Source: a virus (lineage: Duplodnaviria; Caudoviricetes). Taken from it: a DNA stretch of 50,393 nucleotides. The position numbers and the translations under genes are program-made. A model generated the notes under the pieces. The model saw nothing but the letters and a program-made list of their open reading frames with translations. It searched no databases and was not told where the DNA came from. Where the stretch lies: IMG/VR virus record IMGVR_UViG_3300024283_000062, positions 1 through 50,393 of that record, one strand, 5' to 3'. How positions within the stretch are numbered: the stretch's first letter is position 1; every line of letters starts with the position of its first letter. This document shows, in pieces, positions 8 to 50,143 of the stretch.

Positions 8-133
8 CGACCGATCGCACCCGGGGGCGCCGCTGCTGCCGGAGCAGCAGGCGTGGGCGACACCCCGCCATACATCTGCTGCGTGGTCAGCGGCGTGGGA
101 CCACTGGCGGCAGGTTGGCCCAGGAACCGCTGG
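8..133 (+). repeat. Terminal overlap, copy 1 (identical to 50268-50393)
   Basis: 126-bp exact match CGACCGATCGCACCCGG...CAGGAACCGCTGG at offset 50260. Confidence 0.97.
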
Positions 134-2127
134 AAGAACGGAACAGGCGCTGGCCCTGGCGGGGTCCCGGGCGCAGGCGGTCCACCGCCGCTGCCAAAGA
201 TCTCGCTCGTCGAGCGATAAGCCGGTCCTGGCGCTGGTTGGTTCGCAACCGGCGCGCCCTGAGACGGGGCTTGTGGTCCCGGCGCGGTTTGCGACCCGAC
301 CCGCGGCCCTGGCTCCAGGTTGAACGCGGTGGGCGCCCCCGGGTCGTTCGGGTTGCCCTCGCCCTTGAGACCCACCCAGAGATGCGGGGTTGTGGTGCCC
401 TTGCCGTCATAGCTGGGTGACACAGACAACCGTGGATCGGTCACCCTGCCCCCGGCCGTTGAGACGACACCGCCTGCGTTCCGTAGTGCGTCAACCTGGG
501 TGGCTGACGGCAGATCGCCGCTCTGCTGGAGAGCCTGCACCGCCATGCGATGCGCGGCGCCCGGATCGCCACGAGCCGCTGTCATGAACCGTGTCTGCAA
601 TGCCTGGATCTTGGCTTGCGCCGCGGGAGAGAACACCACCGGGGCGGTGACATAGCCCGGACTGGTCAGACTGCCTTTTTGCGGCTGCGGGTAGATCTCC
701 TGATCGATGCCATGCTGCTGGGCGTTCTGCTGGAAGCTCTCGTTGGCCGTCATCGGCGTCTTCGGCGCCATCGTGCCGTAGGGTATCCAACCCTTCGCCG
801 CCGCGTCGTCAGTCCTCATGGTCCTGGCGTGGGTCGGGTCAGGATCTTGCGGATCAACAAACGTGCCATAAGCACCGCCGTGGGTTTCTTTGATGTCCGC
901 AGTCCCCGACTGGTAAGACGTTGGCTGATTGGGTCCTGGCGTGACTGCCGCGGACAACGTCGTGTTGACGGGACCATTCGGGCCGTTCACCACAACCGGG
1001 CCACCGCGCTGCGTGGCAATACCCTGGTTCCACTCCTGCATCCCAGGTTTCAGATCCATCCGCCGCACCGGAATAGGCGGTCCGTTCGGGTCAGCCGGGT
1101 TGACCGTCTGGACGATCGCCTCGTTGAACTGCCGTGCGTTCTCGCCGGTGACCATGCCCTGCTTTTTCAGCTCAGTCGCGTTGGTCATCCCGGTGGTGGT
1201 GATCTGGGTCCGGCTGGCAGTGTCCTGATTGATGATCGATGGCTCGGCCGCGCCCATCATGTGATGGTAGGTGTTCTCGTCGATCCTGCCGGTGTCATAG
1301 GCACTGCTGATCATGGACCGCCATTCCAGCAGGGCCTGGTTGGCCTCATGACCCGCACCGACAGCCAGCGCCACATACTGCGCCGCCGTGATCATCGGCT
1401 TGGCCGGCGAGCCATCGGCGTTGGCGGGACCAGAGGTCTTACGGCCGCCACCCGGAGGCGTAATGCTGCCCGGGTGGAAGATGCCGGAGGTCGTGTCGTT
1501 GTTCGGCACGCTGCCGTCCGATGCGGTGGCGTTGGACGCCGGGGGCGCACCCGCGCCCGGAGCCGGTGAAGACGTAGGCGGCGGCGTGCCCTGGTCCAAC
1601 CGCATGGTGCCGCCGCCTGCGGGAGCCACCGCGCCGCCGCCCTGGGCGAACAGGCTGCTCAGACCCCCGGGGGCCATGTTGGCCCCGACCTGACCCGCCA
1701 CGATCGGGGCGGGTGCCGCGGGGGGTGCCGCGGGTGCCGGCGCGGGCGCGGGACCACCGCCACCTGCACCTGCCGCGACCGTCGTGCCGAGAGACGGCGG
1801 TGCCGCAGCTGGCGGTGCTTGCGCGGGCACATAGGACCCCGGCGGCTGCATGATGGGCGGCATGTTCGGGCCTTCCGGCGACGGCGCGTAGCTCGTCACC
1901 GGCTGCGTCAGGGTCGTTGCCGCCTGGTCCAGTCCCTGCTGGTGCGCCATCTGGTTGCGGACCTGAGAGGACTGCAGCTGCTTGTATCGCTGCTCGGCGC
2001 CATAATAGCCCGCCTGGGCGACCCGCGACGGGTCCGGAAACAGACCGCCGAAGATCGACCCGAGGCCCTGGTCCCACGCCGCATTGCCGGTGTTGATCGA
2101 GGGACCGCCGCTGGTGGATGTGGGCAT
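8..2127 (-). CDS. Putative internal virion (ejection) protein, 5' part; continues across the junction to the stop at 50147 (~746 aa total)
   Basis: ATG at 2127 (MPTSTSGGPSINTGNAAWDQGLGSIFGG...). The ORF track lists no stop-terminated ORF in this frame, and the frame matches 50147..50335 across the overlap. Pro/Ala/Gln-rich, and lies between ejection proteins and the transglycosylase. Confidence 0.8.
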
Positions 2128-2162
2128 GTTAGATCACCTTGTTGTCGGCCACGGTCGGCACG

Positions 2163-3191
2163 TCAGGCGCCCCCTGGCAGCAGGCCCTTGCCGTAGCCCC
2201 CGAAATAGCCCGCACCGTAGAGACCCAGGTTGCCGATCCCCGAGACGATGCCGCCCAGGCTCTGCCGGTAGGCGGCATCCTGCTTTTCCTGCGCCGCCTT
2301 GTTCGCCGCCAGGGTGTTGGCGTCGCTCTGCCCCAGGTTGGCGATGTCGATGGCGTTGCCGTAGCTCAACCCGGCGGCATCCAGGGCGTTCTGGCCGCGG
2401 GAGGCGATCAGGTCCAGCTGGGTCTGCCCCTCGCCCGTGGCGGCTTGGTAGGCCACCTGGGAGGGCAGCAGACGGGTGTTGCTGCCGGTCCGCAGCAGGT
2501 ATTCCGCGGTCTGCGCCGGCATGATGCCAGTCTTGTTGTCCGCAATCGCCAGGTTGACGTCCTGGACGGGCGCGTCATAGGCGCTAAGTTTGCCAATCTT
2601 GGCGCCATAGTCCCGGATGTTGGTGGCGGCTTCGGCGGTGCGTCGGGCCGAGGCGGCCCGACTGACCGCGTCGTTGGCCACCGCATTGGTCCCACCGGAC
2701 GGGTCAGTCGCTTCGGGACCAGCCGGAGCGGCCGGCATGTTGGCCGCCAGCAGGCTCGCCGCCTGGTCCCGCCGCTGCTGCTCGCTCGTCGCCAGGGCCT
2801 GCGCATTGGTCCGCTGCAACAGATCCTGCGCCGCCTTGTCCCCGGTCTGGCGCAGCCGGTCCGCCTGGGTGTTCTCAGTGTCCAGCACGTCCTGGTAGGA
2901 TTTCAGCGCCCCCATCTGGGCCTGGCCGGTCTGCCGGGCGGCAGCCTGCTGGTCCTGGAAGGTCTGCTCCATCGCCGCGGTCTGGCCGGCGGTCTGCGCC
3001 AGACTGGCTTGCATGCGCTGGTTGAACGCCTGCTGCTGCGCCTGCGAGGTGGCCAGGTTTTGCTGACTGATCGCGTTGGCCGCCTGCTTCTGGGCGTTGG
3101 ACGACTGCACCGCACCATAGACCGATGCGCCCGCGCCGAGAGCCGCTGCACCCAGGCTAATGGCGGTGCCTACTGAAATCGGCTCACACAT
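2163..3191 (-). CDS. Putative internal virion/ejection protein
   Basis: 342 aa. MCEPIS N-terminus followed by a Gly/Ala hydrophobic stretch and Q/A-rich helical body, as in podovirus ejection proteins. Synteny fits. Confidence 0.7.
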   Translation of the reverse strand: MCEPISVGTAISLGAAALGAGASVYGAVQSSNAQKQAANAISQQNLATSQAQQQAFNQRMQASLAQTAGQTAAMEQTFQDQQAAARQTGQAQMGALKSYQDVLDTENTQADRLRQTGDKAAQDLLQRTNAQALATSEQQRRDQAASLLAANMPAAPAGPEATDPSGGTNAVANDAVSRAASARRTAEAATNIRDYGAKIGKLSAYDAPVQDVNLAIADNKTGIMPAQTAEYLLRTGSNTRLLPSQVAYQAATGEGQTQLDLIASRGQNALDAAGLSYGNAIDIANLGQSDANTLAANKAAQEKQDAAYRQSLGGIVSGIGNLGLYGAGYFGGYGKGLLPGGA

Positions 3192-3203
3192 GGCTTGGCC
3201 CCT

Positions 3204-4154
3204 TCATCCTGTGCTGCCTTTGTTTGGGTTGGTCCCGCCGAGACCACCACCACCCCCCGCGTTCCGCTGGTAAGCCCCCAGCGCGATATTGTTCTGCAGC
3301 CCGCCCAGATAGCTCCCGGCGCTGCCCAGCACGTTGGCGAAGATGTTGGACAACGGCGACACCGTGGGCACGCCCTGCAGCGATGACGTGACATCGCCGG
3401 CGTGGCTGGTGACGCCCGAGATCGCCGACCGTTGGGTGTTCAGCGCCGCGTTGACGGCCTGTTCGGATGACCCGGCGATCGGCGAACCGATGCTCTCCGA
3501 GGCGGTAACCTGGCCCAGCAGGTTCTGCTTGGCGGCAGCGACGTTGCCCTTCAGCGTGTTCTCGGCGCCCTGGGCGTTGGCGGTCTGCAGCGCGGTGGCG
3601 CGGCCGGCGCTTTCATCGATCAGGCCCTGCTGGTTGACCCCGGCCTGGCTGGAGGAAATACCCTGCCGCGCCAGTTGAAACCCCAGGTTCTTCTCGGCGA
3701 TATTGCGCTGATAGGTAATGTCGTCCTGCGCCTTGGACATATAATCCTTGGCGTACTGGTTGAAGTAATCCGGGCTGAACTTGCTGAACGCGTCGTTAAT
3801 CTGTTTGGTGCCCTCGCCCAGCAGGGTGGCGCGCCCGGTATCGTACGCGCTCTGCCGGGTGGCCTGGTCCTGGGCCTGCTTGATCTGCTGGTCGTATTGG
3901 GCCTTTTGCTGATCCGCCTGCTGCTGGTTGAACGCCTGCTGCTGATCGGCGATCTTCTGCTGCGCCGCGATCTGCTTGTCGCTCAGATCCTGGCTGGCCA
4001 TGGTCTGATAGGCCGCCGTCGTGGTGGCGCCCCGATCGACATACTCCTGCGGCACGCCCGCATCAGTCGTTATCCACTGACCCGTGCTGTTGTTGAACAT
4101 GAACTGCTTGGGCGTGCTGGCACTGCCGCCGCCGCCACCGCCGCCTATGCACAA
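3204..4154 (-). CDS. Putative internal virion/ejection protein
   Basis: Likely TTG start at 4154 after GGAGGG (MCIGGGGGG...). Q/A-rich coiled coil. Confidence 0.65.
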   Translation of the reverse strand: MCIGGGGGGGSASTPKQFMFNNSTGQWITTDAGVPQEYVDRGATTTAAYQTMASQDLSDKQIAAQQKIADQQQAFNQQQADQQKAQYDQQIKQAQDQATRQSAYDTGRATLLGEGTKQINDAFSKFSPDYFNQYAKDYMSKAQDDITYQRNIAEKNLGFQLARQGISSSQAGVNQQGLIDESAGRATALQTANAQGAENTLKGNVAAAKQNLLGQVTASESIGSPIAGSSEQAVNAALNTQRSAISGVTSHAGDVTSSLQGVPTVSPLSNIFANVLGSAGSYLGGLQNNIALGAYQRNAGGGGGLGGTNPNKGSTG

Positions 4155-4681
4155 TGCCTTACCCTCCGGCCAGTGGGCTGGGTCAGATCCCAGGTGTAGA
4201 GCAGGAAGTCCTCGCGATTGCGGCCGTAGCCCTGCAGCAGGGCCTCGACCTCGCCGCCGATCAACTCGATGAACGCCCGGCCATCGGTGTTCGTCGCCAG
4301 CGCGTAGGCTTCCGCGCGGTGGTAGTTCGATCGCTGCAGCGCGGGAATGATGAAATTGCGCGCCCAATGCACGATCGGGCGCAGTGCCTTGCGGTAGTTG
4401 TCGGTGCCGAACGCACCGCAGATCACCACGCCGGGGCGCACCGGGACCACGCCGCTGACCGCGACCGGCTCGCTGTCCCAGGACCACACCCGCCACAACG
4501 GTCCCGCATTGTGGGTCACGTTGTCGATCAGCGCGTCCTCGTCGTCGTCCCAGCGCAGCGCGAAGATCTCACGCCGGTCACGGTCGCGCAGGTTGCGCAC
4601 GATATAGGTGATGCCCTCGCGCGTGGCCGCGTGCATGCGGATCATGTGATCCTGCTCGGGTCCGAGGATCGTGACGCTCAC
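4145..4681 (-). CDS. GNAT-fold acetyltransferase-like virion assembly protein (T7 gp13-like position)
   Basis: GTGA overlap with the tail tubular B stop. NLRDRDRREI motif and a GNAT-like C-terminal pattern, directly after tail tubular B. Confidence 0.6.
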   Translation of the reverse strand: MSVTILGPEQDHMIRMHAATREGITYIVRNLRDRDRREIFALRWDDDEDALIDNVTHNAGPLWRVWSWDSEPVAVSGVVPVRPGVVICGAFGTDNYRKALRPIVHWARNFIIPALQRSNYHRAEAYALATNTDGRAFIELIGGEVEALLQGYGRNREDFLLYTWDLTQPTGRRVRHCA

Positions 4682-6099
4682 TTGGTGACCCCTTCCTGCA
4701 GGTTCAGATGCACCGCCGAAAGGGTCGCCGGCCCCGGCGCCTGGTGCGTCATGTGCAGCCCGAAATGCGTGCCGTAGCCGGCAAAGGGTATGCTCATCAG
4801 CCCGTAAGTGTTGTCCTGCACCGTGGCGCACAGCTCGAACGCTTCAGTGTTGTTGGGCAGCATGCCGATGCTGATCGACCACTGGCCCTGGCACATCACG
4901 TCCATGCTCTTGATCCGCTTGTTCTCGGTCGGGCTGTCGGCGCTCATGTGCGGCGTGCGGACGGTGACAGACGTGCTGTCATATTCGTTGCCCGCGACGC
5001 CGCCGTAGAGGTAGATATTGCCGTTGCTGTCATGCACGAACAGCCGGTTGCTGACCAACGCGAAGTTCTTCACCAGAAAACCGGGGTCGAACGTGGACCA
5101 GGCGGTAATACTGCCCGCGGGGAAATAAGACAGCACATAGATCGTACTCTCATACGACAGCCAGTAGCGTCCCTGAATTGGCTGCACCACGGCGTCCGAC
5201 CAGCTGAAATATTCAGGGCGCAGGCGAAGCGCCTCGATCAGCAAAGGATCAATCGCCGAACCGACGTCCGACACGCTGGCGGCCAGGTTGACGTAGAGCG
5301 CCTTCAGGCTGCGCACACCGCTGTCGGACAAAAACAGAACGTCGCCGGTGCCGAACTGGACCATCGAACGCGGCGCGGCACAGCCAGTGCGTAGCAGTTG
5401 TGCCAGCGTGTCGTTGCTCGGATCGGGATCGAGCGTCCACAGCTGGGTCTGCAACCGCGCGGCCACCGCCATCTGGTTGTAATAGACTTCCATGGCGACC
5501 AAACTCTCGGCGTCCGGGTCGTTAAGAGCCAGGTTGATGAAGCCGGCGCCTGGCTCGGTGACCGAAGCAGGATCGTTCTGCGCCGGGTTGTTCACGCCGG
5601 AAAAACGCAGATACTGCCCGTCAATCCGATACATCTTGGACTTCCAGGTGCGGGCATACTGACCGCTGCTCAGGCTGCCGTCCGCCTCATGCACCAGCAC
5701 ATCGTTATACCAGCAATACCAGCGCGTGGCGCCGTAGCCGCAGACATAGAACGAGGTGCCGAACGCCTGCACATCCGAAAGCCAGTTGATCGTTTCCCCC
5801 GGATCTTCCAGATAATGCCCCACGATTGGCACCGGCAGTGAACCTCCCGGGATCGCAGGGGCGCTGCCGATACAGAACGCGTGCAGGCTGCCGGCCTGGC
5901 CGATCAGATACATCCAGCCGGCCGGCATCGTGGTCATCAGCACGAAGGCTTTGCGCTTCTCGATCTCGCCGCCGTTGTTGATCACCGCGTTTTCCAGGAT
6001 GCGCAGCGAGCCACCGGGCGCAGTCAACGGCGTCTTGCGGACGTCAAGGCCCTCCTTGAAGTCCGTGATCGAAAAGACCTTGTTGCCGCTCCCCGCCAT
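4678..6099 (-). CDS. Tail tubular protein B / DNA stabilisation (nozzle) protein
   Basis: 473 aa, beta-rich. N-terminal DFKEGLD...LENAVINNGGEIEKR pattern, and position after tubular A. Confidence 0.7.
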   Translation of the reverse strand: MAGSGNKVFSITDFKEGLDVRKTPLTAPGGSLRILENAVINNGGEIEKRKAFVLMTTMPAGWMYLIGQAGSLHAFCIGSAPAIPGGSLPVPIVGHYLEDPGETINWLSDVQAFGTSFYVCGYGATRWYCWYNDVLVHEADGSLSSGQYARTWKSKMYRIDGQYLRFSGVNNPAQNDPASVTEPGAGFINLALNDPDAESLVAMEVYYNQMAVAARLQTQLWTLDPDPSNDTLAQLLRTGCAAPRSMVQFGTGDVLFLSDSGVRSLKALYVNLAASVSDVGSAIDPLLIEALRLRPEYFSWSDAVVQPIQGRYWLSYESTIYVLSYFPAGSITAWSTFDPGFLVKNFALVSNRLFVHDSNGNIYLYGGVAGNEYDSTSVTVRTPHMSADSPTENKRIKSMDVMCQGQWSISIGMLPNNTEAFELCATVQDNTYGLMSIPFAGYGTHFGLHMTHQAPGPATLSAVHLNLQEGVTK

Positions 6100-6849
6100 T
6101 TAATGTGGTCCGGGACCAGAGCCATAGCCTGGCGGGACGTAGTCCAGGCCCAGCACCGGCTGGTGCCCTGGCCGCGACTGGGCGTCACCACCGCCGCCAC
6201 CGATCACGATCGGGCGCACCTTCTTGTGGCTGAACTGCCGCACGCGATGGCGCCGCATCGCCTCGTTCGCCTTGTTGAGCTTGAGGGTGGCGTCCTTGGC
6301 GCCGTCGCGCTGCAGGATCTCGACCGCAGAGAACAGCACGATCAGGTTATCCGGCAGCGTGCTGACGTCGTCGTCGTTGATCATCTTGGTGACGGTCTTA
6401 GTCCCGCGCACCCGGATGATGGCGTTGGCGTTGATGGCGCTGGCGTCGGGGACCGGCCACAGCTCGATCATGTTGCTGTCGGCGTTGTGCATCCACTTGC
6501 GGGTGGGCCACGCCTTGAACCCGGTGTCCGAGTTCCACAGCACCATCTCGTAGGGACCAATGCCGTAGGCCAGCTCGTTGTAGACCGTGTTGATCAGCAC
6601 CCAGATGTTGGTGATGTCGTCGAACGCCAGATCTGACGGATAGGCATAGTAGCGCCCGCCGTCGACCAGCTTGATGTCGCGATCAATGATCAGCTGCGGC
6701 CAGTCATAGTCCTGATACAGCTGGATCTGCGTGCGATTGAGATAATACAGCAGCGTGTCGCGATCGTTGATGCCGTGCGCGACATTGGTCGAGTGACCGA
6801 TCTCCGCGCGAAGGTCGGTCAGCATGTCGCGCAGCTGTTTAGGCGCCAC
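6100..6849 (-). CDS. Tail tubular protein A / head-tail adaptor
   Basis: 249 aa with YLNRTQ..L...YDWP and IELWPVP adaptor-type motifs. Synteny fits. Confidence 0.7.
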   Translation of the reverse strand: MAPKQLRDMLTDLRAEIGHSTNVAHGINDRDTLLYYLNRTQIQLYQDYDWPQLIIDRDIKLVDGGRYYAYPSDLAFDDITNIWVLINTVYNELAYGIGPYEMVLWNSDTGFKAWPTRKWMHNADSNMIELWPVPDASAINANAIIRVRGTKTVTKMINDDDVSTLPDNLIVLFSAVEILQRDGAKDATLKLNKANEAMRRHRVRQFSHKKVRPIVIGGGGGDAQSRPGHQPVLGLDYVPPGYGSGPGPH

Positions 6850-7513
6850 GAGCCGCTCGGTTCGCCAGCGCCGCGCCGCCTCCCGACTTCGGCTTGAAGT
6901 TGGGAGGATGACTGCCGCCGGCGTTCACGTCCGGCAGCTGATCCAATGGTCCCGCGCGCGACACGCCGCGGCCGCTGGTGTCGCGCACGATGTGCGCCAG
7001 ATCCTCCGGGCGTGGCCGCACGGGTCCATCCAGGCCCAGCTCGATGGCGTCTTCATCGTCCTGCGCATGCGCCGCAATTTCCTCTGGCGTGGGTTCGCTC
7101 TCCGGCGGCAGCGCGGGCGCCTCCAGCACAGGCATGTCGGCGGTCTGGGTGAACTGGTTCAACGGACGCAGCTTCGGGTCAGGACTGGCCGGGCGGGTCG
7201 GCTGCGGCTTGTAGATCGGCAGCGTGCAGCGCGGGATCGACGCATCCCCTGTCGGCAGCCGCGGGCGGTTGCCGGGGAACACGTCCTTGATCGTCTCCGG
7301 CTGATACAGCGTCTGCAGCCGGGTCAGCACCTCGTCGTTGCTGGCCTCCCAGGTGCCGACAACGAAGATGTCGGTGATCGCCTCTTCGCCGTGGATGAGT
7401 TGCAGGATCGGCAGTTCCGGGAACACGATCGGCTGGTCCCGGTGACGATAGACCTGGTTGCCCTGGTCCCCGCCGAGGGCGACCATGCAACGCAACAACT
7501 GGAACGCGGGCAT
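6839..7513 (-). CDS. Hypothetical phage protein downstream of the capsid gene
   Basis: 224 aa, GGGAG RBS, in the late operon. Confidence 0.7.
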   Translation of the reverse strand: MPAFQLLRCMVALGGDQGNQVYRHRDQPIVFPELPILQLIHGEEAITDIFVVGTWEASNDEVLTRLQTLYQPETIKDVFPGNRPRLPTGDASIPRCTLPIYKPQPTRPASPDPKLRPLNQFTQTADMPVLEAPALPPESEPTPEEIAAHAQDDEDAIELGLDGPVRPRPEDLAHIVRDTSGRGVSRAGPLDQLPDVNAGGSHPPNFKPKSGGGAALANRAARGA

Positions 7514-7531
7514 CAGGTAAAACTCCCTGTC

Positions 7532-7547
7532 GGTTTCACGTGAAACA
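7532..7547. promoter_or_regulatory. parS: parS-like ParB binding site GGTTTCACGTGAAACA
   Basis: 15/16 match to the chromosomal parS consensus TGTTTCACGTGAAACA. Perfect 14-bp palindrome at 7533-7546, intergenic. Confidence 0.75.
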
Positions 7548-7590
7548 AACGCGGGACCGGTCCCGCCAAGGGATTAAAACCGGTCCCGCG
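7541..7590 (-). terminator. Rho-independent terminator after the major capsid gene
   Basis: CGCGGGACCGGT...ACCGGTCCCGCG stem followed on the minus strand by TTTGTTTC. Confidence 0.65.
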
Positions 7591-7604
7591 CATGCACTGG
7601 GTCG

Positions 7605-8684: not shown

Positions 8685-8699
8685 TGGGGTTCATCCGTG

Positions 8700-9839: not shown

Positions 9840-9942
9840 CCAGGGGTTTGCCGATCTCGCTGGATCAGCAAAGGGTTATGCCCCTGTGTTGTGTTTGTGT
9901 CCAGCGTTTGTCCTCAAGACACTGACACGACACCTGGCCTGG

Positions 9943-9973: not shown

Positions 9974-10023
9974 GACAACGCCGGCCAGGACGGGCCTGGC
10001 CGGCGTTTCGGAAGGAGCAAGTG

Positions 10024-10098: not shown

Positions 10099-10102
10099 GG
10101 CG

Positions 10103-40288: not shown

Positions 40289-40611
40289 TGTTGACGCCTT
40301 CTTCGCAGCCATCGCAACCGAAGTTTAACGCGATGGCTGCGCGGTTCGCTACAATCGACGCCGCTAATCCAGACATATGGCGGCTGTTTGAGCGATTTGC
40401 TTTTGACATGATCCAGCGTGGGTTTCAGCATTACTCTGCCGATGCAGTGATGCATCGAGTGCGATGGGAGACTGCGGTTTATTTGCTTGATGGCAATAAT
40501 GAGTTCAAGATCGCAAACATATGGGTAGCTTATTATGCACGTAAGTTTACCCGTGTTCATCCGCAATACGCGGGGTTTTTTCGGTTACGCCCTTCGCAAG
40601 CAGACCTGTGA
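40288..40611 (+). CDS. Hypothetical phage protein (lower GC)
   Basis: 107 aa, TGATG-coupled, aromatic-rich (NPDIW..F...RVRWE...FKI....YYARKF). Confidence 0.7.
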   Translation: MLTPSSQPSQPKFNAMAARFATIDAANPDIWRLFERFAFDMIQRGFQHYSADAVMHRVRWETAVYLLDGNNEFKIANIWVAYYARKFTRVHPQYAGFFRLRPSQADL

Positions 40612-42528: not shown

Positions 42529-42716
42529 CTTTGTCTGGTGGCATTTGAAAATCATTCGCACACTGGTTTGTCGCGGCCTGCTACACAGAATTTACCAGAT
42601 ATAATCAGCATGTTCTCGATCCATGTCCGGCACGATCTGTCGTGTCTTGTGTGCGAACCAGGACACACGGCGGTTTTATGGTCAGATACCTGGAGGGGGT
42701 ATATCCATTGCCGGCA

Positions 42717-42809
42717 TCAATCCTCCGGCGGCAGGCGGATCACCGTCCACGCCAATACCGGACCCGCCACCATCACCACCAGTATTGCCCCCCACGCCAC
42801 CCATGACAT
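42717..42809 (-). CDS. 30-aa single-TM peptide MSWVAWGAILVVMVAGPVLAWTVIRLPPED
   Basis: AGGAG RBS 6 nt upstream of the ATG, one hydrophobic helix. Confidence 0.5.
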   Translation of the reverse strand: MSWVAWGAILVVMVAGPVLAWTVIRLPPED

Positions 42810-42878
42810 CGCCGTCTCCTGCGCAATTCACACATCAACCGCCAAATATCGCACAACACTACACACAACAACGTCGGC

Positions 42879-42969
42879 TAAGTCATTGAAATCATTAGTG
42901 TAGATTTGTCCAGGGCCTTACTTTTCAGAGGGGTTTGTAGGGCGACAAATTGGGTATAAGTCATTGATA
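42879..42969. promoter_or_regulatory. Two IHF-like sites flanking a dyad; candidate attP
   Basis: TAAGTCATTGAAA (42879) and TAAGTCATTGATA (42957; perfect YAANNNNTTGATW) enclose the ATTTGTC/GACAAAT inverted repeat. Confidence 0.5.
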
Positions 42970-43084
42970 TACTTGGTGTTTTTTGTGTCCTTTAGACTGT
43001 GTGTGTAATTCGCACACAAAGCACAAGAGACAACGCGACGGGTATTTTCGGTCGTTTGTCCGGCGCTAAACACGACGAACCAAC

Positions 43085-46000
43085 TCATGGCTGCGCTGCC
43101 CGTTCCGCCGCTTTCGGCGGACGCGCGTCCTCACTGCGCCACGGCGCCGTGGTGTCGAGGAAACTCTTGGCGCCATAGGCCGCGGCGCCGAGGCCGCCCA
43201 GCACCTTGAGTGGCCCCGGCAGCCGCGCCAGGGCGGTCGCCGCCGGCTCGCCCGCCACCTGCCAGGCCGGCTTCGCCACATCGTCCACCAGCCCCCAGGG
43301 GACCAGCCCGCCGCTGGCGTCCTGCGCCGCGCCCTTACCCTTGCCCTCTTCGCCGTCGTCGCCGCCCAGGCTGGGCAGGCTCGGCAGCCCGGCCAGCCCT
43401 GGTAGCTCAGGTAACTTGCCTTCCGGGGTTTCCTTCGGCAGCTGACTGCCTTTCTCGCCCGCCACCGCGCCGGCAAAGGCGGCAGCGGCGCGGGGCGACG
43501 TGCCGAACTGCAGGGCTGTTCCGGCGGCGACCTTTGCCGCCGCGCCACCCACCCCGCCCAGCGTGGTCAGGACGTAGGCCGCCGCCGGCACGCCCACCAG
43601 ATTGAACGCGCCACGGGCGGCGTTGAAATACCGCGTGTTAGTGTTCGGGCTGTCGTTCGCCATAACAAAGGGGTTGATCACGTCCTGCGCATTCTTCGCC
43701 ATCCAGTTGAGCGAGGCACCCTCCAGCAGCGACCCCACGCTGCCCTCGTAGCGCAGATGCGACCCCAGCTGGATGATCGGATCGAGCGTGCCGTTGAGGC
43801 CCGATCGCTGCATCGCGAGATCGATCAGGTAGCCGCCCAGGTTGCCCTCGTCGGCCTGCTTCTGCCACTGGTCCGGCGCGAACAGATACTGCCGCAGCGC
43901 GGTGGTCAACAGCCCCGCCGCCACCATGGTGCCCGCCATCGCGGCGGCATGCGCCGCGGCGCCGCCCGCCGCCAGCATGCCGCGGGTCTTATAGGCGTGC
44001 GCGATGTTGTCCATCGCCGGCTGCAGCACGTTGCGCTGGAACTGGTAGTTGAAGCTCATCAGCTGGAACGCCAGGCCGACGAACGGCGTCGAGGACATCG
44101 CCGCCCGGTCGACCTTGTAGGGGTCCTGGATGGTGCGGTCGGTGAGCCGCCGCGTGGCCAGGCTGTAGGCCCCCGCCATCGGGTCGCTCCGCAGCTGCGC
44201 CACGGTGGGCCGGCCGCCGTTGAAGTCGGTCATCCACTTGGCGAAGTCAGCGTGGATCGGATCGTTCAGGCCCAGCTCGCGGAACCACCGGGTGGCGGTC
44301 TCCTTGGCTACGGCGTCGGTCCCCCGGTGGTCCCGGGACAGCTTGGCCAGGAAGCCGTTGGCCGCCGCGGTCGCGGCGATACGCTGCGAGTTGGTCAGCT
44401 GGGTGAGACCGGTGATCCGGTAATACTGGGTCATGAACTTGTTCAGCGCCGGACTGTCGGCGTAGTTGGCGCTCATCCGGTTCAGCATGATGCTGTCGTG
44501 CATCGCGCTGGTCACCGTGCCGAGGTATTCCGCCATCTCGGTGCGCTCGCGGGCGGACGCCGTCTTCATCAGCTGGCCGAACTGGTTGGCGAAGGTCTCG
44601 AAACCCACCCGCATGCTGCCGGTGGCCAGCGCCGCGTTCATCGGCTCGGCCAGCGCGGACCAGGCGGCGCGCGGCATCAGCGCGATGCTGCCGGCGGCGT
44701 GGATGACGTTGGAGAACTTCATCAGCCCCGACATGCCGCGTGTGTTCTGCTGCCCAGTGACCGCCAGCATCTGCTGATGGAACCAGTTGGCGTCGTGGGT
44801 GTTCATCGCCAGGTGGTCGTGGACCTTGGCCATCATCGCGTCCAGGTCCTCGCCATTGGCGCCGAACCGTTCGGCGAACGCGATCCGGCGCGCGGCGGCG
44901 TGGAAGTAGTTGGGCAGCGCGTCGGTCGGGCTGGTGCGCATGAACTCGCGCATGATCTGATCGGCTTCCGGCGGCAGCACGCGGGTCTTCAGGTATTTGC
45001 CGGAGGGTCCCACGGTGTCGAAATCGTGCATCCCGCCCGCCATCAGGCGGGCCAGCCAGCCGTTGGCCTCCAGTGCCGACGTGTGGTCCCGCAGCATCGG
45101 GTGGGCTTCCTCCGCGATCTGCTGGGCTTCGAGTTTGAGCTGCTCGTGTTCAGCCTCCAGCACTGGGTTAGGACCAGAAAACAGTTCGGCCTCGATCTCG
45201 GCCTGGCGGCGCAGGTTCCGGCGCAGCTCGTTCATGTGTCCGGTCAGGGCGAGCAGCTCGCCGCTGCCGCCCCGCGGCTCGTTCTCGCGGTCGGCCTTGG
45301 ACAGCGTGGTCCACTTCTCCAGCAAGGCGGTCGGATCGGACCCTGGGTCGCCCAACTCAGTGTCGAACATGTTCGCGTGCAGCAGCTGCGCCTGCTTCAG
45401 AAACTTGAGCTTGCTGGCCTCGCTGGCGGTGGCCTTGAGGGCATCATACAGCCGCGGGTAATAGCCGCTGCGGGCGTAGCCCACATCGATGCCCGCGTCA
45501 TGCGTGGCGCGCCAGACCTCGTCCATCAGGTTGCGCAGGCGCCGGCCGGCGGTCAGCAGGTGGTCCGGGATCGCCCTGCTGGGACCAGTGCCGTCCGGGT
45601 TCACCGGGTAGCGGGTCTCGCCGGTGGTCAGGAAGTGCCGGAGCATGTCGCCGTCCGCGACGCTCATCGCGTCGGCGTTCCGGTAGCCGGCGCTGGTCAG
45701 GATCTTGGCGAACCGGTCGGTCCAGCCGCGGGCGTATTTGCGCACCGCTTCCTCGAAATTCTCCGGCGTGTAGCGCCCTTCACCCGGAGCCGCGGCCACC
45801 CGGTCCAGCATCTCGCGCAGCAGGGGTTTGACCTGCTCGGGGGCGCGGCCGATCACCGTCTCCATGATGCCGTGATGCGAGTGAACCACCGTGCGGGCGT
45901 AGTCCGCCATGCGGCGATACCAGGGATACTCGCCGGTGGGGCGTGACGCATCGGTCAGGGCGGTGGCGTTCAGCAGACTGCGGATCAGGGTCTTGGTCTT

Positions 46001-49000
46001 GTCGCCCATGGTCCTGGCGTCACGCACCGCCTGCGGGTTGGCGCCAGGCGGCACGGTGGCGCCATAGTGCAGCGGGTCCGAGATGCCGAGGTTGGCCGGT
46101 CCCTGCGGGGTGACGCCATGCGACAGGACGTTTTCGTTGCGCATCACATCGTGCAACTCGTCGAACGCCGTGAAGATATTCATGCGGTCTTCGGCCTGCG
46201 GGTAATAATCCCCCATCATCCGGTTGGTCTCGCGGATGTAGGCCGCGTCCGGCATCACTGCGCCGCGCGGATCATGCCCCGCGGTTTCCATCTTCCAGGC
46301 CATCCAGGCTTCGTGGGCACGCGCGAACAGCTCGGCGGGGTCGGCATAGTAGCCAGGCTTGGGGGACCGCCGCGCCCCGGCCAGGAACTCGGTCGGCTGG
46401 ATGCGTAGTCGGCTGCCCGCCGCCTCCAGCAGGGCCAGCTGGCGCTGGGCCTCCGTCGCGGCCTTGGTCGGGTTGCCCAGCCGGTCGACCGCTTCGGCCT
46501 GTCTCTGCAGGCTGATCTGGCGCGCCGCCATCGCCGCCTTGTCGTAAAACATTATGTTCATCAGCCGCGCCACGGCGCCCTGCACGCCGTCCCTGGGGTC
46601 CAGCTGGCCGGCGCGGGCGTAACGGGTGAGCAGCTGGGTGGCGTTGCCGGCGCCCATCAGGCGATCGGCCAGCTTGTGGTCCATCGCGTGCGCCCACTCG
46701 TGGCCGAAGCTGTTGGCGCCACCGGTGATGCGGATCTCGCCGGCCGTGCTGTAGGCGCCGTAATAGCTCTTGGACCCCTCCGGATCGATCACCAGCCGGA
46801 GCCGGCCGAAATCCCCCGCCGCCTCGTAGGGCAGGCCCAGGTCGCTCATCAGGTCCTGGGTTGCCCGGGTCATGTCCAGCATCGCATCGCGGGCGATCTT
46901 GCGGTCCACCGGGGTCGGCTCGGACCCCTCGCGCCGGCCTTCCACGCTGACGTTGCGGAAGCCCATTGTGTTCTGCATGTGGTTGGTCAGGACGTGGATC
47001 TGCTCTTCCATCGGCCGGTTAACCATCACGCGCGGGTCTTTGCCGGCCTGCTCGAACACGCTGTCGTAGACGCTGGTCCCGTTGTTGAACTTGTAGTCCC
47101 TGACGTGGTCGGCCGTGGCCCTGACTTCGGGTGCCCCGGCAAATGGTTGTTTGCGCCCGCCCACCCGAGGACCACTGGCGCCCTTGTCCTGGAGAGCCTG
47201 TTCACGCGCCGCGATCTGGCGGTCCAGGTCGGCGAACCGGTTGGGGTTAGTAGTCGGCCGGTTGCGGGTCTCGATCAGCCGGTCAAGCTGCTGGTCCCCG
47301 GTCGGGGCACGACTGGTCCCGGCATTCTGGTCCTCCGCAGGACCGGTGGTCCCAGGGACCACTGGCTCGATACGATCCGAAAGTGTAGCGCCTCGCTGCA
47401 AATTTTCTTGTGGTCGGCCGTAGTCGATAACCTGCGGCGTATCGAACACGTTACGCAGCAGTTTGATGTCGTGGCCCTGACTCGTGATGTCGCCAGGCGT
47501 GCTGTCGTCCCAATGCACGATGATGCCGTCGTGGCCCTTGGACTGGACGATTTCCTTGAGCCGCTGGGTCATGCCCAGGACCTGGTCCTTCGGTAGCCCG
47601 GTCGGGTTGGGCACCTGCCAGCCGGCTTCGCGCGTCAGCTTACGCCAGTCCTGGTCTGATCGGATGATCAGAGGGTTTTCTACTTCGACCGGATGTGCGG
47701 TGACGTTAGGACCGTATTGTTTGGCGGCTTCAGGATCGAACGCAGAATAGCGGGCTTCGCCGGCAATCGGCACACCTGCACTGAGAGGGTTATAGGCGCT
47801 GGCCTGATTGGCACGGCCAGAACCACGATAGACCGTCTGCCCGGCAAACTCGTGTGTCGCAGCGGTGCCAGGCGTGGGCTGTCCCGGACCAGCACCCTCC
47901 GCATCGGCTTGACGTGCGAAGTCCAACACCCGGCCGCGCCAGGTCTCGCCTTTACGGAGCGGGTCTTTGGCCCCGGTCGACAAGATTGACCGGTATTCGC
48001 TGTCAGGCGCGCTCCGTGCGTCCAGTTCGGCCACTGCGGCGCGGTATTGGTCGCCACGCGTTTGAGTTGGTCCCGGGACCGCGCCCTGGTCGGTTTTTGG
48101 TATACCGCCGACCGCGTTTACACCAGCGGCGGGAACTGTTTCAGTGGGCGATGGAGCCTGACGAGCTTGCCCCTGGTCTGGCGGCGGTGCTGCCTGAGTA
48201 TCGCCAGCGCCCACGCCCGTATCTCCGGGGCGGACACCGCCCGGCTGTTCGGCGGGAAGTCGCGCAGCACCTGCCTCGCCCACTGGAGCTGCTGGTTCGG
48301 GTCGTCCGGCGGTGCTACCAGATCCGTCATCCGGCGGAACGATAACAGGTTCGGGGGGCCGCGGCGATGGAGTTTCGCTTTCAGTTCGAACCACCGCAGT
48401 CGGGACCGGCGGCGCTGGAGCCGTTTCTGGCGGCACTGGTGTTTCAGATGCAGGCGTGGCTGGCGCAGCCTGGGCTACCGGAACCTCCACCGGAGGTGGC
48501 ACCGGAACTGGCTCGGTCGTTCTTTCGGGCACTGGCCCCGGCACTGGCTCAGTGGCTGGAACAGTATCACGGGGTGTTGCCACCGGCGTTGATACGTCAG
48601 GCGCTGGCGCTGGCGGGACAGCTGCAGTCCCGGGTGGTGGTTCACTAGCCGGGGGTGCCTCCACTGGTCCTGGACGGCCTCTGACGGCCTGCACCGCTCG
48701 CCCGCCCACCTGGTGCCCGACGCCGAACGCGGCGCCGGTAGCGATGTCCTGGCCCAGTCCTTCGACCATCTGTTTGCCCGAGGGCAGCGGCTCGCCCATC
48801 GCCAGCGGCACGCCCACGCGTCCCGCCGCACCCACCGCAGGCTGGGTCGCCAGGGACTGGAACAGGATCTTGCCGATCACGCTCTTGAACGGCGCCAGCT
48901 CGAACAGGGGCGCGGTGGCGGCGCCGATCGCGCCGGTCACCAGAGCATGCTTGATGGTGTAGTCCACCGCCTCGTCGTGGCTCATTCTGCCGCCCTGCAC

Positions 49001-49630
49001 CGCGGCTTGGTAGGTCGGCACCAAATCCTGCATCAAAGATGTGCCGCCGACGCCGAGGGCTGCACCGATGATACCGCCGACTGGGCCACCCACGGCGGTC
49101 CCGGCGGCGCCACCGGCGAGACCACCACCGATCACTGGGACCGAGTGACCGATGCCGTAGCCCAGTTCATTGAACCAACCACGGGTCGGCTCGGGCGGCG
49201 CATTCGGGTCAGCGGCGAAGGCGTTGCCGGTGGCAAGCTGCGCCGCTTCTCGTCCAGATGCACCAACGCCCGAGAGCAGTCCGCTGAAGAACCCGCTTTC
49301 CTGCGGCGGCTGCGCATCGCCAGGCTGTGTGGGTACCACCGATGACGCCGACTGAGCTTGTCCCGCAGCCAGACCCTCTTCCGGGGTGTTGAAGAACTGC
49401 GGCAGGGCGTCTATCGCCGGAGAGGGTGTTGACGCGGCGGGGATCTGAGCGGCCGGGGCGGCTGGGACGGGAACCGGAGTGGCAGGGACCGGGACCACTG
49501 CCGGTTGCGTCACCGGCGGGGGCGATACCGTCGTCGCGGCCTGCCCCGCGGCCAGACCCTCTTCCGGCGTGTTGTAGAATTGCGGCAGCGCCGAGGGCAG
49601 GACGCCGGAGAGGTTGCTGCCGTCAGGCAT
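43085..49630 (-). CDS. Giant internal virion / polyvalent protein with ART-like and LPD1-like domains
   Basis: 2181 aa. VYRGS...A.QYG.NV......NPL...GHDGIIV (ART-PolyVal-like) and SFGHEWAHAMDH...YYADPAELFARAHEAW...YYP (LPD1-like). Last gene of the late operon. Confidence 0.8.
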   Translation of the reverse strand: MPDGSNLSGVLPSALPQFYNTPEEGLAAGQAATTVSPPPVTQPAVVPVPATPVPVPAAPAAQIPAASTPSPAIDALPQFFNTPEEGLAAGQAQSASSVVPTQPGDAQPPQESGFFSGLLSGVGASGREAAQLATGNAFAADPNAPPEPTRGWFNELGYGIGHSVPVIGGGLAGGAAGTAVGGPVGGIIGAALGVGGTSLMQDLVPTYQAAVQGGRMSHDEAVDYTIKHALVTGAIGAATAPLFELAPFKSVIGKILFQSLATQPAVGAAGRVGVPLAMGEPLPSGKQMVEGLGQDIATGAAFGVGHQVGGRAVQAVRGRPGPVEAPPASEPPPGTAAVPPAPAPDVSTPVATPRDTVPATEPVPGPVPERTTEPVPVPPPVEVPVAQAAPATPASETPVPPETAPAPPVPTAVVRTESETPSPRPPEPVIVPPDDGSGSTAGRPEPAAPVGEAGAARLPAEQPGGVRPGDTGVGAGDTQAAPPPDQGQARQAPSPTETVPAAGVNAVGGIPKTDQGAVPGPTQTRGDQYRAAVAELDARSAPDSEYRSILSTGAKDPLRKGETWRGRVLDFARQADAEGAGPGQPTPGTAATHEFAGQTVYRGSGRANQASAYNPLSAGVPIAGEARYSAFDPEAAKQYGPNVTAHPVEVENPLIIRSDQDWRKLTREAGWQVPNPTGLPKDQVLGMTQRLKEIVQSKGHDGIIVHWDDSTPGDITSQGHDIKLLRNVFDTPQVIDYGRPQENLQRGATLSDRIEPVVPGTTGPAEDQNAGTSRAPTGDQQLDRLIETRNRPTTNPNRFADLDRQIAAREQALQDKGASGPRVGGRKQPFAGAPEVRATADHVRDYKFNNGTSVYDSVFEQAGKDPRVMVNRPMEEQIHVLTNHMQNTMGFRNVSVEGRREGSEPTPVDRKIARDAMLDMTRATQDLMSDLGLPYEAAGDFGRLRLVIDPEGSKSYYGAYSTAGEIRITGGANSFGHEWAHAMDHKLADRLMGAGNATQLLTRYARAGQLDPRDGVQGAVARLMNIMFYDKAAMAARQISLQRQAEAVDRLGNPTKAATEAQRQLALLEAAGSRLRIQPTEFLAGARRSPKPGYYADPAELFARAHEAWMAWKMETAGHDPRGAVMPDAAYIRETNRMMGDYYPQAEDRMNIFTAFDELHDVMRNENVLSHGVTPQGPANLGISDPLHYGATVPPGANPQAVRDARTMGDKTKTLIRSLLNATALTDASRPTGEYPWYRRMADYARTVVHSHHGIMETVIGRAPEQVKPLLREMLDRVAAAPGEGRYTPENFEEAVRKYARGWTDRFAKILTSAGYRNADAMSVADGDMLRHFLTTGETRYPVNPDGTGPSRAIPDHLLTAGRRLRNLMDEVWRATHDAGIDVGYARSGYYPRLYDALKATASEASKLKFLKQAQLLHANMFDTELGDPGSDPTALLEKWTTLSKADRENEPRGGSGELLALTGHMNELRRNLRRQAEIEAELFSGPNPVLEAEHEQLKLEAQQIAEEAHPMLRDHTSALEANGWLARLMAGGMHDFDTVGPSGKYLKTRVLPPEADQIMREFMRTSPTDALPNYFHAAARRIAFAERFGANGEDLDAMMAKVHDHLAMNTHDANWFHQQMLAVTGQQNTRGMSGLMKFSNVIHAAGSIALMPRAAWSALAEPMNAALATGSMRVGFETFANQFGQLMKTASARERTEMAEYLGTVTSAMHDSIMLNRMSANYADSPALNKFMTQYYRITGLTQLTNSQRIAATAAANGFLAKLSRDHRGTDAVAKETATRWFRELGLNDPIHADFAKWMTDFNGGRPTVAQLRSDPMAGAYSLATRRLTDRTIQDPYKVDRAAMSSTPFVGLAFQLMSFNYQFQRNVLQPAMDNIAHAYKTRGMLAAGGAAAHAAAMAGTMVAAGLLTTALRQYLFAPDQWQKQADEGNLGGYLIDLAMQRSGLNGTLDPIIQLGSHLRYEGSVGSLLEGASLNWMAKNAQDVINPFVMANDSPNTNTRYFNAARGAFNLVGVPAAAYVLTTLGGVGGAAAKVAAGTALQFGTSPRAAAAFAGAVAGEKGSQLPKETPEGKLPELPGLAGLPSLPSLGGDDGEEGKGKGAAQDASGGLVPWGLVDDVAKPAWQVAGEPAATALARLPGPLKVLGGLGAAAYGAKSFLDTTAPWRSEDARPPKAAERAAQP

Positions 49631-50143
49631 CTAGCCGGTCCCGAAGAAACGCTGGTTGTAGTCCTGCATCGGCTGCAGCGCCCGGGTCACCGCCGCCGAG
49701 AGACCACCGCCCCCGCCTGCCGCGTTCATCAGCGACGCCAGCAGCATCGGGTTTGGTCCCTGGGCCTGTTGCGGCGCGGCCGCGGCGGCAGGAGGTGGTG
49801 GAGGTGGCGCGGCCGGCGGCTGGTCCCCGATGGGCGGCAGCCTGGCGTCACCTGGGTTGCTCGCGACGTAGCTGGACAGCGCCGGATTGCACCCCGGGCA
49901 GGTCCAGTCGCCGAGGCCCCGCCTGGCCACCGCTTGCTTGAACACCGCGTCCTGCACTTCCGGGGGCGCCACCGCGGCGGTGGGATAGGCCGAGGTGTCG
50001 ATGCCCAGCTGCGAACCATACTGGCGCCAGGTGGAGGGCACGAACTGATAGGCGCCCGCCGCCCCCGAGGACGGGTTGACCGCGGTGTAGTTGCCGCCGC
50101 TCTCGAAGTGCTTGACCAGATCGGCGAGGGACTGGAACGCCAT
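49631..50143 (-). CDS. Lysozyme-like lytic transglycosylase, probably virion-associated
   Basis: HFESGGNYTAVNPSSGAAGAYQFVPSTW...APPEVQDA (Rpf/SceD-like core). Confidence 0.85.
   Translation of the reverse strand: MAFQSLADLVKHFESGGNYTAVNPSSGAAGAYQFVPSTWRQYGSQLGIDTSAYPTAAVAPPEVQDAVFKQAVARRGLGDWTCPGCNPALSSYVASNPGDARLPPIGDQPPAAPPPPPPAAAAAPQQAQGPNPMLLASLMNAAGGGGGLSAAVTRALQPMQDYNQRFFGTG

Follow-up and report, generated by a model that had tools for sequence, protein, structure and literature searches.

The DNA analysed here (the window) is the complete genome of a soil phage, 50,393 bp in length, in which 32.4 kb of called coding DNA lies on the minus strand and 9.4 kb on the plus strand. A single heptamer, TGGTCCC, recurs across it. 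The copies were counted directly, and the features of interest are the following, with the strand after the coordinates:

97..50363, both strands: all copies of the heptamer, 70 TGGTCCC on the plus strand and 23 on the minus strand
1..6700, no strand: second part of the non-polar region (14 plus and 13 minus copies across both parts)
14155..14209, plus: four-copy cluster; on the coding strand GGGACCA encodes Gly-Pro with rare codons in the G- and P-rich N-terminal part of the portal
16165..20615, no strand: tail-gene stretch without any copy on either strand
23565..23594, plus: three-copy cluster with spacings of 12 and 11 bases
24577..27814, plus: AAA (MoxR/CbbQ-like) and VWA-like genes, motif-poor and reversed (1 plus and 3 minus copies)
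28583..30397, minus: gene for a zinc-finger-like domain and a D5_N/SF3 helicase, with an ATG that overlaps the stop codon of the primase gene in the sequence ATGA
30092..30184, minus: Cys/His motif C-x5-H-x18-C-H-H-x-H-C, its columns invariant in 11/11 aligned relatives
30394..31098, minus: AEP (RepB'-like) primase catalytic gene, from a RepB_primase Pfam match and the predicted fold, with the motif VIDDYG at 30676-30693; the candidate reader of the heptamer
32920..32967, plus: three-copy cluster in the integrase gene
35881..42528, plus: replication module of SNF2 helicase, PD-(D/E)XK exonuclease, gp2.5/Enc34-like SSB and DNA polymerase A (12 plus and 3 minus copies)
39009..39022, plus: direct tandem pair in the exonuclease gene
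43000..50393, no strand: first part of the non-polar region, with internal virion protein genes; continuous with 1..6700 if the genome is circular
47292..47361, no strand: three plus copies followed by one minus copy, the final pair forming the palindrome TGGTCCC-A-GGGACCA

TGGTCCC occurs about ten times more often than expected by chance, and predominantly on one strand. The 70 plus-strand and 23 minus-strand copies (the latter read as GGGACCA on the plus strand) give a total of 93, or 1.85 per kb over both strands, close to the roughly 70 and 20 that a preliminary description of this DNA had counted by eye. In 100 dinucleotide shuffles, the expectation for both strands pooled was 9.35 ± 3.03, with a maximum of 18. 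Markov models predicted 5.8 plus and 4.0 minus copies at order 1, and 13.9 and 6.0 at order 3. Within called genes, where 61 plus and 20 minus copies lie, 1000 synonymous-codon shuffles yielded 17.5 ± 2.9 and 3.8 ± 1.7, while 1000 codon-order shuffles yielded 4.7 and 3.7. The enrichment thus persisted under every Markov, dinucleotide and codon null, all of which placed the expectation at about 4–17 per strand; the minus-strand copies were themselves enriched about 5-fold. The word is sharply defined: all 21 of its single-base variants have at most 16 copies per strand, and on the plus strand the 5' base alone separates TGGTCCC (70) from CGGTCCC (16), GGGTCCC (7) and AGGTCCC (3).

The word also shifts Gly-Pro codon choice to rare codons. 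Across the genome, Gly is encoded by GGA in 7% of cases and Pro by CCA in 14%; yet among Gly-Pro dicodons GGTCCC (16) and GGACCA (12) rank ahead of GGCCCG (9). Several local features named in the preliminary description were found as stated: four copies within 55 bases at 14155..14209 and three at 23565-23594, the use of rare codons in such clusters, the sparseness of the motif in the tail genes and its mostly reversed orientation in the AAA/VWA module. Neither the four-copy cluster nor the direct tandem pair has an obvious use in priming. Words accumulated against codon preference mark direct enzymatic reading of DNA; known phage examples are few, chiefly Chi.

As the preliminary description stated, the plus-strand excess does not follow gene orientation. 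TGGTCCC is found in all three reading frames, and minus-strand genes contain 51 plus copies (16/21/14 by frame) against 14 minus copies, while plus-strand genes contain 10 against 6. In the plus-strand replication module, the 12/3 split departs from the ratio expected if orientation were followed (binomial p = 2e-6). Polarity is missing over 43.0–50.4 plus 0–6.7 kb (14 plus, 13 minus), and the remaining genome holds 56 plus and 10 minus copies. The unidirectional replication proposed earlier finds no support in the cumulative GC skew, whose turning points lie near 22.5 and 44 kb; the motif switches polarity at neither of them. A strong orientation bias along a replicon is also shown by KOPS, or FtsK-orienting sequences, and by other skewed chromosome words, which a host translocase reads in chromosome segregation; we know of no such role in a phage genome of 50 kb with a site every 0.5 kb.

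Next, the word was followed through related phages. In clade A (TerL at least 82% identical), TGGTCCC was the top heptamer in 8/8 genomes, with a uniform polarity relative to TerL (70/23, 56/20, 29/12, 42/19, 64/30, 39/26, 33/15 and 42/22). The six syntenic genomes of clade B enriched GTCCYGG instead, with about 77–108 copies on the plus and 59–90 on the minus strand. Other words were seen in individual phages: G013 additionally enriches TTGTCCC (20/15), G004 and G005 additionally enrich TGGTCCT, G007 enriches GTCCCC, and L332 carries TTGTCCC/GGGACAA (24/33) dispersed across 20.6 kb. Clade B and L332 (57 copies in 20.6 kb) reach 150–190 copies per 50 kb with little polarity. Clade A and clade B differ in polarity (about 3:1 against near 1:1) despite syntenic replication genes. 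The enrichment is thus family-wide: the GTCC core stays constant, the flanks vary by lineage, and the word differs even between phages whose TerL proteins are 75–88% identical, also inside clade A. G007, G012 and L400 show weak or no heptamer enrichment despite having the same zinc-finger primase. A GTCC word was absent from nine of 20 distant primase-bearing loci, those sharing little beyond the AEP with the window in a gene-by-gene comparison; four of the nine also have a weak helicase match, and L380 and L383 have other weak gene matches.

At orthologous positions, plus-strand sites were conserved in fractions of 0.67, 0.43, 0.36 and 0.33 of cases in comparisons with G001, G003, G013 and G002; taking every heptamer window, the corresponding fractions were 0.48, 0.20, 0.16 and 0.15. 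The excess, about 1.4–2.3 times the average heptamer, was significant (p = 0.002 to 0.0006), while minus-strand TGGTCCC was conserved no better than background.

Which protein might read the word? The preliminary description pointed to a RepB-type primase, and such a primase is present, with its Pfam match and an AEP fold in the AlphaFold2 model of the N-terminus, whose best Foldseek matches are S-2L PrimPol (6zp9, E 6e-7) and RepB' with initiator DNA (3h25). The Cys/His motif matched no Pfam family, and we call it zinc-finger-like from its spacing. Word groups match the clades of the primase N-terminus (36–71% identity within clade A, about 28–35% between clades) and are independent of helicase type, since G003 (strong TGGTCCC) and G007 (no TGGTCCC) share one. 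The primase clades, however, are congruent with the TerL clades, and none of the 16 genomes and more distant loci examined proved to be a recombinant in which primase and phage lineages part. Co-variation of word and primase, which had been suggested as a check, was therefore observed, but it is equally expected from a host-encoded reader. The idea of a primase site is partly supported, by the AEP primase, the Cys/His motif, the family-wide GTCC core and the lack of enrichment in the bacterial genomes sampled.

Primases that start at defined template words offer a comparison. The T7 gp4 primase uses 5'-(G/T)(G/T)GTC-3', likewise short and built around GTC, and the T7 site TGGTC is contained in TGGTCCC; the TTGTCCC of G013 and L332 mirrors the T7 alternation of G and T. 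Unlike the window primase, T7 gp4 is of the DnaG/TOPRIM type and its pentamers are frequent by chance. Counted in the T7 genome (GGGTC 39/55, TGGTC 79/62, GTGTC 43/42, TTGTC 26/56, with 31–58 expected), these pentamers are non-polar and at most 2-fold enriched. Sequence-specific AEPs share with the window primase a catalytic fold followed by a template-reading accessory domain, and the window primase models onto S-2L PrimPol and RepB'. The RepB' of RSF1010 is represented on its initiator DNA in the entry PDB 3h25, as far as the accessible part of that record goes. The NrS-1 primase-polymerase recognises TTTGGTTA and GTG, according to the accessible part of PMC8718748, so the specific sites in the NrS-1 analogy of the preliminary description stand, while its one-strand enrichment is not given in that part. 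In PrimPol and herpes simplex UL52, a 3'-GTC-5' template preference depends on the zinc finger (PMC10345425, accessible part). The accessible parts of both papers (PMC8718748, PMC10345425) do not report genome-wide enrichment of the recognition words of NrS-1, PrimPol or UL52.

Taken as a whole, the heptamer is best read as a selected DNA-level signal; most likely, though at somewhat less than even chances, it is the template word for lagging-strand priming by the phage AEP primase. The primase would start lagging-strand primers at or beside the heptamer. At the base composition of the window, only about one chance copy of a seven-base word is expected in 9 kb of each strand, and a genome needing it for priming would thus accumulate copies until sites stood every 0.5–1 kb. 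The strand that is more often the lagging-strand template would carry more of them. The word read would be TGGTCCC on the plus strand or GGGACCA on the minus strand; both the primase as reader and the direction of replication are our own extrapolation. Recognition of TGGTCCC on the plus strand would mean that forks meet about three quarters of the coding DNA head-on. Within the phage family, a diverging reader protein would give a constant core with shifting flanks. A fuller version, which we consider possible but rather doubtful, is that an AEP with a zinc-finger-like reader requires the seven-base word, that the genome has been rewritten against codon preference to supply a site every 0.5–1 kb, and that word and reader drift together around the GTCC core. 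If true, the replisome could use the word, about 10–20 times rarer in host DNA, to recognise the DNA of the phage. Genome-wide enrichment of primase sites has no precedent known to us, and in a limited literature search a primase as reader would be the first known case of primase specificity shaping a whole genome. The natural variants TGGTCCC, TTGTCCC, TGGTCCY, GTCCYGG and GTCCCC, together with the matching primase variants, offer a testable specificity code.

The Chi alternative raised in the preliminary description is a serious rival, although we judge it improbable at about one chance in four. A host RecBCD- or AddAB-type helicase-nuclease would read the word, probably as 5'-GGGACCA-3' on the late-gene sense strand, and would thereby be switched from degrading linear or rolling-circle phage DNA to protecting it and promoting recombination. 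Seven nucleotides fall in the length range of Chi sequences, about 75% of the copies lie on one strand, and clusters and tandem copies would raise the chance of recognition by such an enzyme. Phage precedent exists: the accessible part of Zheng, Casjens, Davidson, Amundsen and Smith (Genome Res 2025; PMC12315714) describes the Chi-rich phages LLS, MD8 and P1, in which Chi is denser than in the host. There, as in the window, a short asymmetric word is the commonest oligomer, many-fold above chance, overlapping words rank next, and the word lies mostly or wholly on one strand regardless of gene orientation; GGGACCA on the late-gene sense strand is also the arrangement described there as active. 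In those phages the word is the known Chi of the host and the sites tend to lie near one end, whereas the copies in the window are evenly spread, without concentration at one end, 2–4 times denser, and composed of a word that shifts between close relatives. The Chi-rich phages of that paper also have no recombination module, a correlate rather than a defining feature, while the window encodes a PD-(D/E)XK/DUF2800 exonuclease and a gp2.5/Enc34-like ssDNA-binding protein. The 150–190 copies per 50 kb of clade B and L332, with their little polarity, likewise differ from the published Chi-rich phages. Among phages with TerL 75–88% identical, even in clade A, the hosts would need different Chi words. 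As to bacteria, we surveyed 707 genomes (5, plus 301 Acidobacteriota and 401 Pseudomonadota, covering two phyla), and none was enriched in TGGTCCC: the maximum was about 0.38–0.4 per kb over both strands against 1.85 in the phage. Two contigs counted in full showed no strand skew (13/24 and 21/16). If a host nuclease were nevertheless the reader, the word would reveal the Chi sequence of a soil host not yet in culture and offer a new way to connect these phages with it.

A reader encoded by the phage but other than the primase is less probable still. The word would then serve another binding or control function, for example in Chi-like regulation of the paired SNF2 helicase and Cas4-like exonuclease, as a loading site for the SSB or an annealing protein, or as a polar packaging or ejection signal. 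The GTCC core, family-wide with lineage-specific flanks and absent from the sampled bacteria, points to a phage-encoded reader, of which the primase is one candidate, and SNF2 helicase, exonuclease and SSB are conserved in 16/16 genomes whose record spans that region. To our knowledge none of these three acts sequence-specifically, and apart from a small HTH protein the Cys/His motif of the primase was the only DNA-binding domain found. Localised single-strand nick sites, as in T5 and phiKMV-like phages, would have DNA molecules ending at the word on one strand; the 24 runs containing this sequence are all stored as contigs, in which molecule ends are not visible. Finally, it is very improbable that the word is a by-product of restriction pressure or biased repair, such as escape from a Type III or another orientation-dependent restriction system, or substitutes for avoided neighbouring words like GGGCCC. 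Several palindromes are indeed strongly avoided (GANTC, 4 copies against about 174 expected; GTAC, 18 against 93; GGGCCC, GGATCC and AGCGCT, none), TGGTCCC is one base from a GGGCCC-containing word, and Type III enzymes depend on sites in inverse orientation, so that escape would favour one orientation. Such escape is disfavoured: it would deplete the minority orientation without overall enrichment, and here both orientations are raised 5- to 10-fold. GGGCCC avoidance accounts for only about 28 expected sites and leaves the 5' T requirement unexplained, and the plus-strand sites are under purifying selection.

The heptamer TGGTCCC occurs 70 times on the plus strand of the window and 23 times on the minus strand. 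In 100 dinucleotide shuffles, 9.35 ± 3.03 copies were expected on both strands together (maximum 18), and Markov models gave plus/minus expectations of 5.8/4.0 (order 1) and 13.9/6.0 (order 3). Within genes, 61 plus and 20 minus copies were found, against 17.5 ± 2.9 and 3.8 ± 1.7 when synonymous codons were shuffled (1000 shuffles) and 4.7 and 3.7 when codon order was shuffled (1000 shuffles). Thus, the excess reported in a preliminary description exceeded every Markov, dinucleotide and codon-shuffle expectation, the first and last being nulls which that description had proposed as a check. Minus-strand copies were enriched too, by about five-fold. Each of the 21 single-base variants of the word has at most 16 copies per strand, and its flanks are weakly biased: A is rare immediately 5', and G follows immediately 3' in 54% of copies.

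The window is the entire assembly, one contig of 50,393 bp, and is a phage genome. A minus-strand ORF that starts at 2127 continues past position 1, and at 50393 another open frame (49848-50393) comes in; open frames across both ends fit a circularly permuted complete genome. Direct terminal repeats are the class assigned to two relatives. The polarity of the word was compared with the following gene map.

Genes of the window, from PHROGs and Pfam matches
7605-8684, minus strand: major head protein
11875-14265, minus strand: portal
15058-16650, minus strand: large terminase (TerL)
17181-22404, minus strand: tail proteins
minus strand: HNH endonuclease
24577-27814, plus strand: AAA/MoxR-like gene and VWA-like gene
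28583-30397, minus strand: D5_N/SF3 helicase
30394-31098, minus strand: AEP primase
32381-33769, minus strand: integrase
35881-42528, plus strand: replication module (SNF2 helicase, PD-(D/E)XK exonuclease, gp2.5/Enc34-like SSB, DNA polymerase A)
43085-49630, minus strand: 2181-residue virion protein

The plus-strand excess had been claimed to ignore gene orientation, and it does so: minus-strand genes hold 51 plus and 14 minus copies, and plus-strand genes 10 and 6. The plus-strand replication module, with 12 plus against 3 minus copies, excludes a bias tied to transcription (p = 2e-6). Polarity is absent over 43.0-50.4 and 0-6.7 kb (14 plus, 13 minus), while the remainder of the window holds 56 plus and 10 minus copies. 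Cumulative GC skew has its maximum at ~22.5 kb and its minimum at ~44 kb, almost opposite on a circle; the polarity of TGGTCCC does not switch at either turning point. The copies occupy all three reading frames, and the word overrides codon choice. Among Gly codons 7% are GGA, and among Pro codons 14% are CCA, yet the commonest spellings of Gly-Pro dicodons are GGTCCC (16) and GGACCA (12). The rare-codon cluster described earlier was recovered as four copies coding Gly-Pro at the portal N-terminus (14155-14209). The word and its own complement stand head-to-head at 23202-23217 (GCCTGGTCCCGGGACC) and 47347-47361 (TGGTCCC-A-GGGACCA), and these short palindromes could form hairpins in single strands. 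Words of the TGGGGAG type (17-18 copies, all plus) were considered as a second polar motif or hairpin and rejected, as they belong to a coding tandem repeat of 30 bp (26467-26800; 17-18 units, TGGGGAGGC-type cores) within the VWA-like gene, which spans 25715-27814. In relatives, other tandem repeats occupy the same place (e.g. in the viral loci L353 and L346, and in parts of L335 and L347). The words that showed 23:0 polarity in L353, L346 and L355 were likewise put down to tandem repeats.

Relatives were drawn from a viral collection with 584 TerL relatives and 231 primase relatives, of which the best 80 of the former and 80 of the latter were covered. Fifteen further contigs of 30.7-53.1 kb were compared, 13 of them rated 97-100% complete, and all 15 are syntenic with the window, with identical gene orientations. 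In clade A, whose eight genomes (window included) have TerL at least 82% identical to the window's, TGGTCCC is the top-ranked heptamer in 8/8 genomes, its excess keeping the same orientation towards TerL throughout (70/23, 56/20, 29/12, 42/19, 64/30, 39/26, 33/15 and 42/22). Summed over the clade, 40 plus and 11 minus copies lie in the plus-strand replication genes, against 43 and 33 in the gene of the large virion protein, so the local polarity pattern is common to the clade too, with the caveat that its members are non-independent samples. Plus copies of the window are conserved at aligned positions more often than all heptamer windows in four relatives: 0.67 against 0.48 in G001 (p = 0.002), 0.43 against 0.20 in G003 (p = 0.0006), 0.36 against 0.16 in G013 (p = 0.004), and 0.33 against 0.15 in G002 (p = 0.007). 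Conservation of minus copies (6-12 aligned) was near background.

In the six genomes of clade B (G006, G008-G011 and G014, from loci L138-L160; TerL ~75% identical), the top word is GTCCYGG, with ~77-108 plus and 59-90 minus copies and little polarity. This amounts to 150-190 copies per genome over both strands (about one per 265-330 bp), or about one per 0.5 kb on each strand, and TGGTCCC itself is moderately raised (14-34 plus, 5-16 minus). Local patches in this clade are dominated by one orientation, such as 15 minus GTCCYGG in the first 2.5 kb of G009. Other relatives carry further variants: TTGTCCC in addition in G013 (20/15), TGGTCCT in addition in G004 and G005, GTCCCC alone in G007 (40 copies against 14.8 expected), and TTGTCCC/GGGACAA in the more distant syntenic locus L332 (24/33, dispersed across 20.6 kb). 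A GTCC word was absent from one relative, G012. These variants indicate that the GTCC core is constant in the phage family and that its flanks depend on lineage. In conclusion, the word pattern is real, under selection and common to a phage family.

Viral contigs scanned for three TGGTCCC within 30 bases yielded mostly collagen-like Gly-Pro repeats and no unrelated phage with dispersed copies. Among 64 SNF2-bearing phage control loci of at least 10 kb, 62 without a zinc-finger primase, the best dispersed heptamers reached ~11-23 copies. The best control dispersion score (7.6) was not below that of a 21-kb piece of G001 (6.6), so this control was underpowered on 20-kb pieces and did not set the phage family apart. 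A full-text literature search for TGGTCCC and GGGACCA as words returned nothing on phages or bacteria among the matches listed, and a megablast of 25 kb of the window against a phage collection gave zero matches. All 24 soil metagenome runs listed contain at least part of the window sequence, as contigs, and 10 of the 24 contain at least half of the sampled window words; one of them may be the window's own source.

We then considered what reads the word. A single ORF of 434-915 residues combines an AEP domain, a middle domain and a helicase in 12 of 15 relatives; in the window, G001 and G003, primase and helicase are two genes, and at 30394-30397 of the window the primase stop overlaps the ATG of the zinc-finger/helicase gene (ATGA). 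The helicase part is of four unrelated types without correspondence to the word, one type being common to G003 (strong TGGTCCC) and G007 (without TGGTCCC). The N-terminal 360 residues of the primase are homologous throughout, with identities of 36-71% within clade A and ~28-35% between clades. When 11 fused N-termini were aligned, C268, H274, C293, H297 and C298 proved invariant, and the same Cys/His motif lies at 30092-30184 of the window; Pfam gave no match to this part. We take its spacing to resemble the UL52/PrimPol zinc finger. For an AlphaFold2 model of the primase N-terminus (mean pLDDT 74.6), the structural matches are the AEP domains of two proteins, cyanophage S-2L PrimPol (E 6e-7) and RSF1010 RepB' in complex with initiator DNA, with poxvirus D5/E5 as a weaker match. 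According to the available text of a review, PrimPol and HSV UL52 prime at 3'-GTC-5' with a zinc-finger-dependent preference (PMC10345425). The available text on the NrS-1 primase-polymerase gives its recognition words as TTTGGTTA and GTG and does not state for either the one-strand enrichment claimed earlier (PMC8718748).

On present evidence, the most likely reader is the phage's own zinc-finger AEP primase, a candidate that we put forward tentatively and at somewhat below even probability. TGGTCCC would then be a template word needed by the primase, in which the genome became enriched until its density suited priming. By chance, a heptamer is expected here about every 9 kb on each strand, too rarely for priming unless enriched, and the observed spacing of one per 0.7 kb on the plus strand fits priming. 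A phage-encoded reader is also favoured because the word varies among close relatives while its core stays constant, and because a GTCC word is lacking in nine loci that share little beyond the AEP (four of the nine also carry a weak helicase match), out of 20 more distant loci with a primase that were compared with the window genes. In a phage that has only the AEP in common with the window (loci L358 and L364, 1-12000), CCTTTCT(GG) is dispersed, 12 on one strand and 1 on the other, possibly as the complement of a word resembling a ribosome-binding site. Against the primase, the four primase pentamers of T7 are not polar and at most two-fold enriched in its genome; some relatives with the same zinc-finger primase show little enrichment; polarity differs between clades with the same replication genes; and tight clusters of the word are not explained. 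Related phages do carry lineage-specific GTCC-core words that go with the primase clades, with little polarity in clade B; these clades coincide with those of TerL, so a host-encoded reader would produce an identical pattern. The primase is the sole phage-encoded candidate with a plausible reading domain; another reader encoded by the phage is distinctly unlikely.

The main rival, a Chi-like word, is possible though unlikely. Chi-rich phage genomes (LLS, MD8 and P1; PMC12315714) present the same picture and are the closest described counterpart of the pattern. However, the phage has 1.85 copies per kb, and the bacteria sampled, from two phyla, show no enrichment of the word: the maximum is ~0.38 copies per kb in 301 Acidobacteriota and ~0.21 in 401 Pseudomonadota, with 0.05-0.1 in five genomes that encode distant relatives of TerL. 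Among the genomes tallied, four are flagged as unpublished (G172, G044, G069 and G703); none of these is extreme, and on none of them does a claim rest singly. Runs of 13/13 plus-strand copies in two acidobacterial genomes were rejected as skew, being an artefact of match listing; the full counts are 13/24 and 21/16. The word also differs among close phages, its density in clade B is very high and near-symmetric, and an exonuclease and an annealing-type SSB are encoded by the phage itself. The word that is read may be that of either strand, TGGTCCC or GGGACCA. TGGTCCC contains TGGTC, a T7-type site, but if it is the one read, the lagging-strand template is placed so that forks would meet most genes head-on. 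The late-gene sense strand carries GGGACCA, which would be in keeping with forks that move with late transcription, and just as well with the Chi orientation described for lambdoid phages; the sequence does not fix the direction of replication. An origin of the word as a by-product of restriction or repair is very improbable.

Palindromes are strongly avoided in the window (GANTC 4 against ~174 expected; GTAC 18 against 93; GGGCCC, GGATCC and AGCGCT 0 copies each). Clade B also avoids CGGCCG, CCGCGG and CGATCG, and G012 avoids GGCGCC and GCCGGC. This avoidance suggests that restriction pressure is heavy and varies among lineages. In the search for a host, TerL relatives in 185,579 species genomes were only 26-51% identical (best segment), no tRNA was found in the window, and the Atlas neighbours of the capsid protein were viral. 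Metagenome contigs scanned for the integrase yielded 10 loci, none with a host junction: nine are collinear with the phage genome, and the remaining one, on a 2.3-kb contig whose integrase match is 35%, aligns over 150 bases only. The non-coding stretches examined held no iterons or obvious origin. Low-GC stretches (0.455-0.52) at 31900-32400 and 34300-34500 lie on either side of the integrase/HTH region, and a 48-nt imperfect direct repeat is found at 32064-32111 and 32160-32207; together they represent a possible attP or regulatory region.
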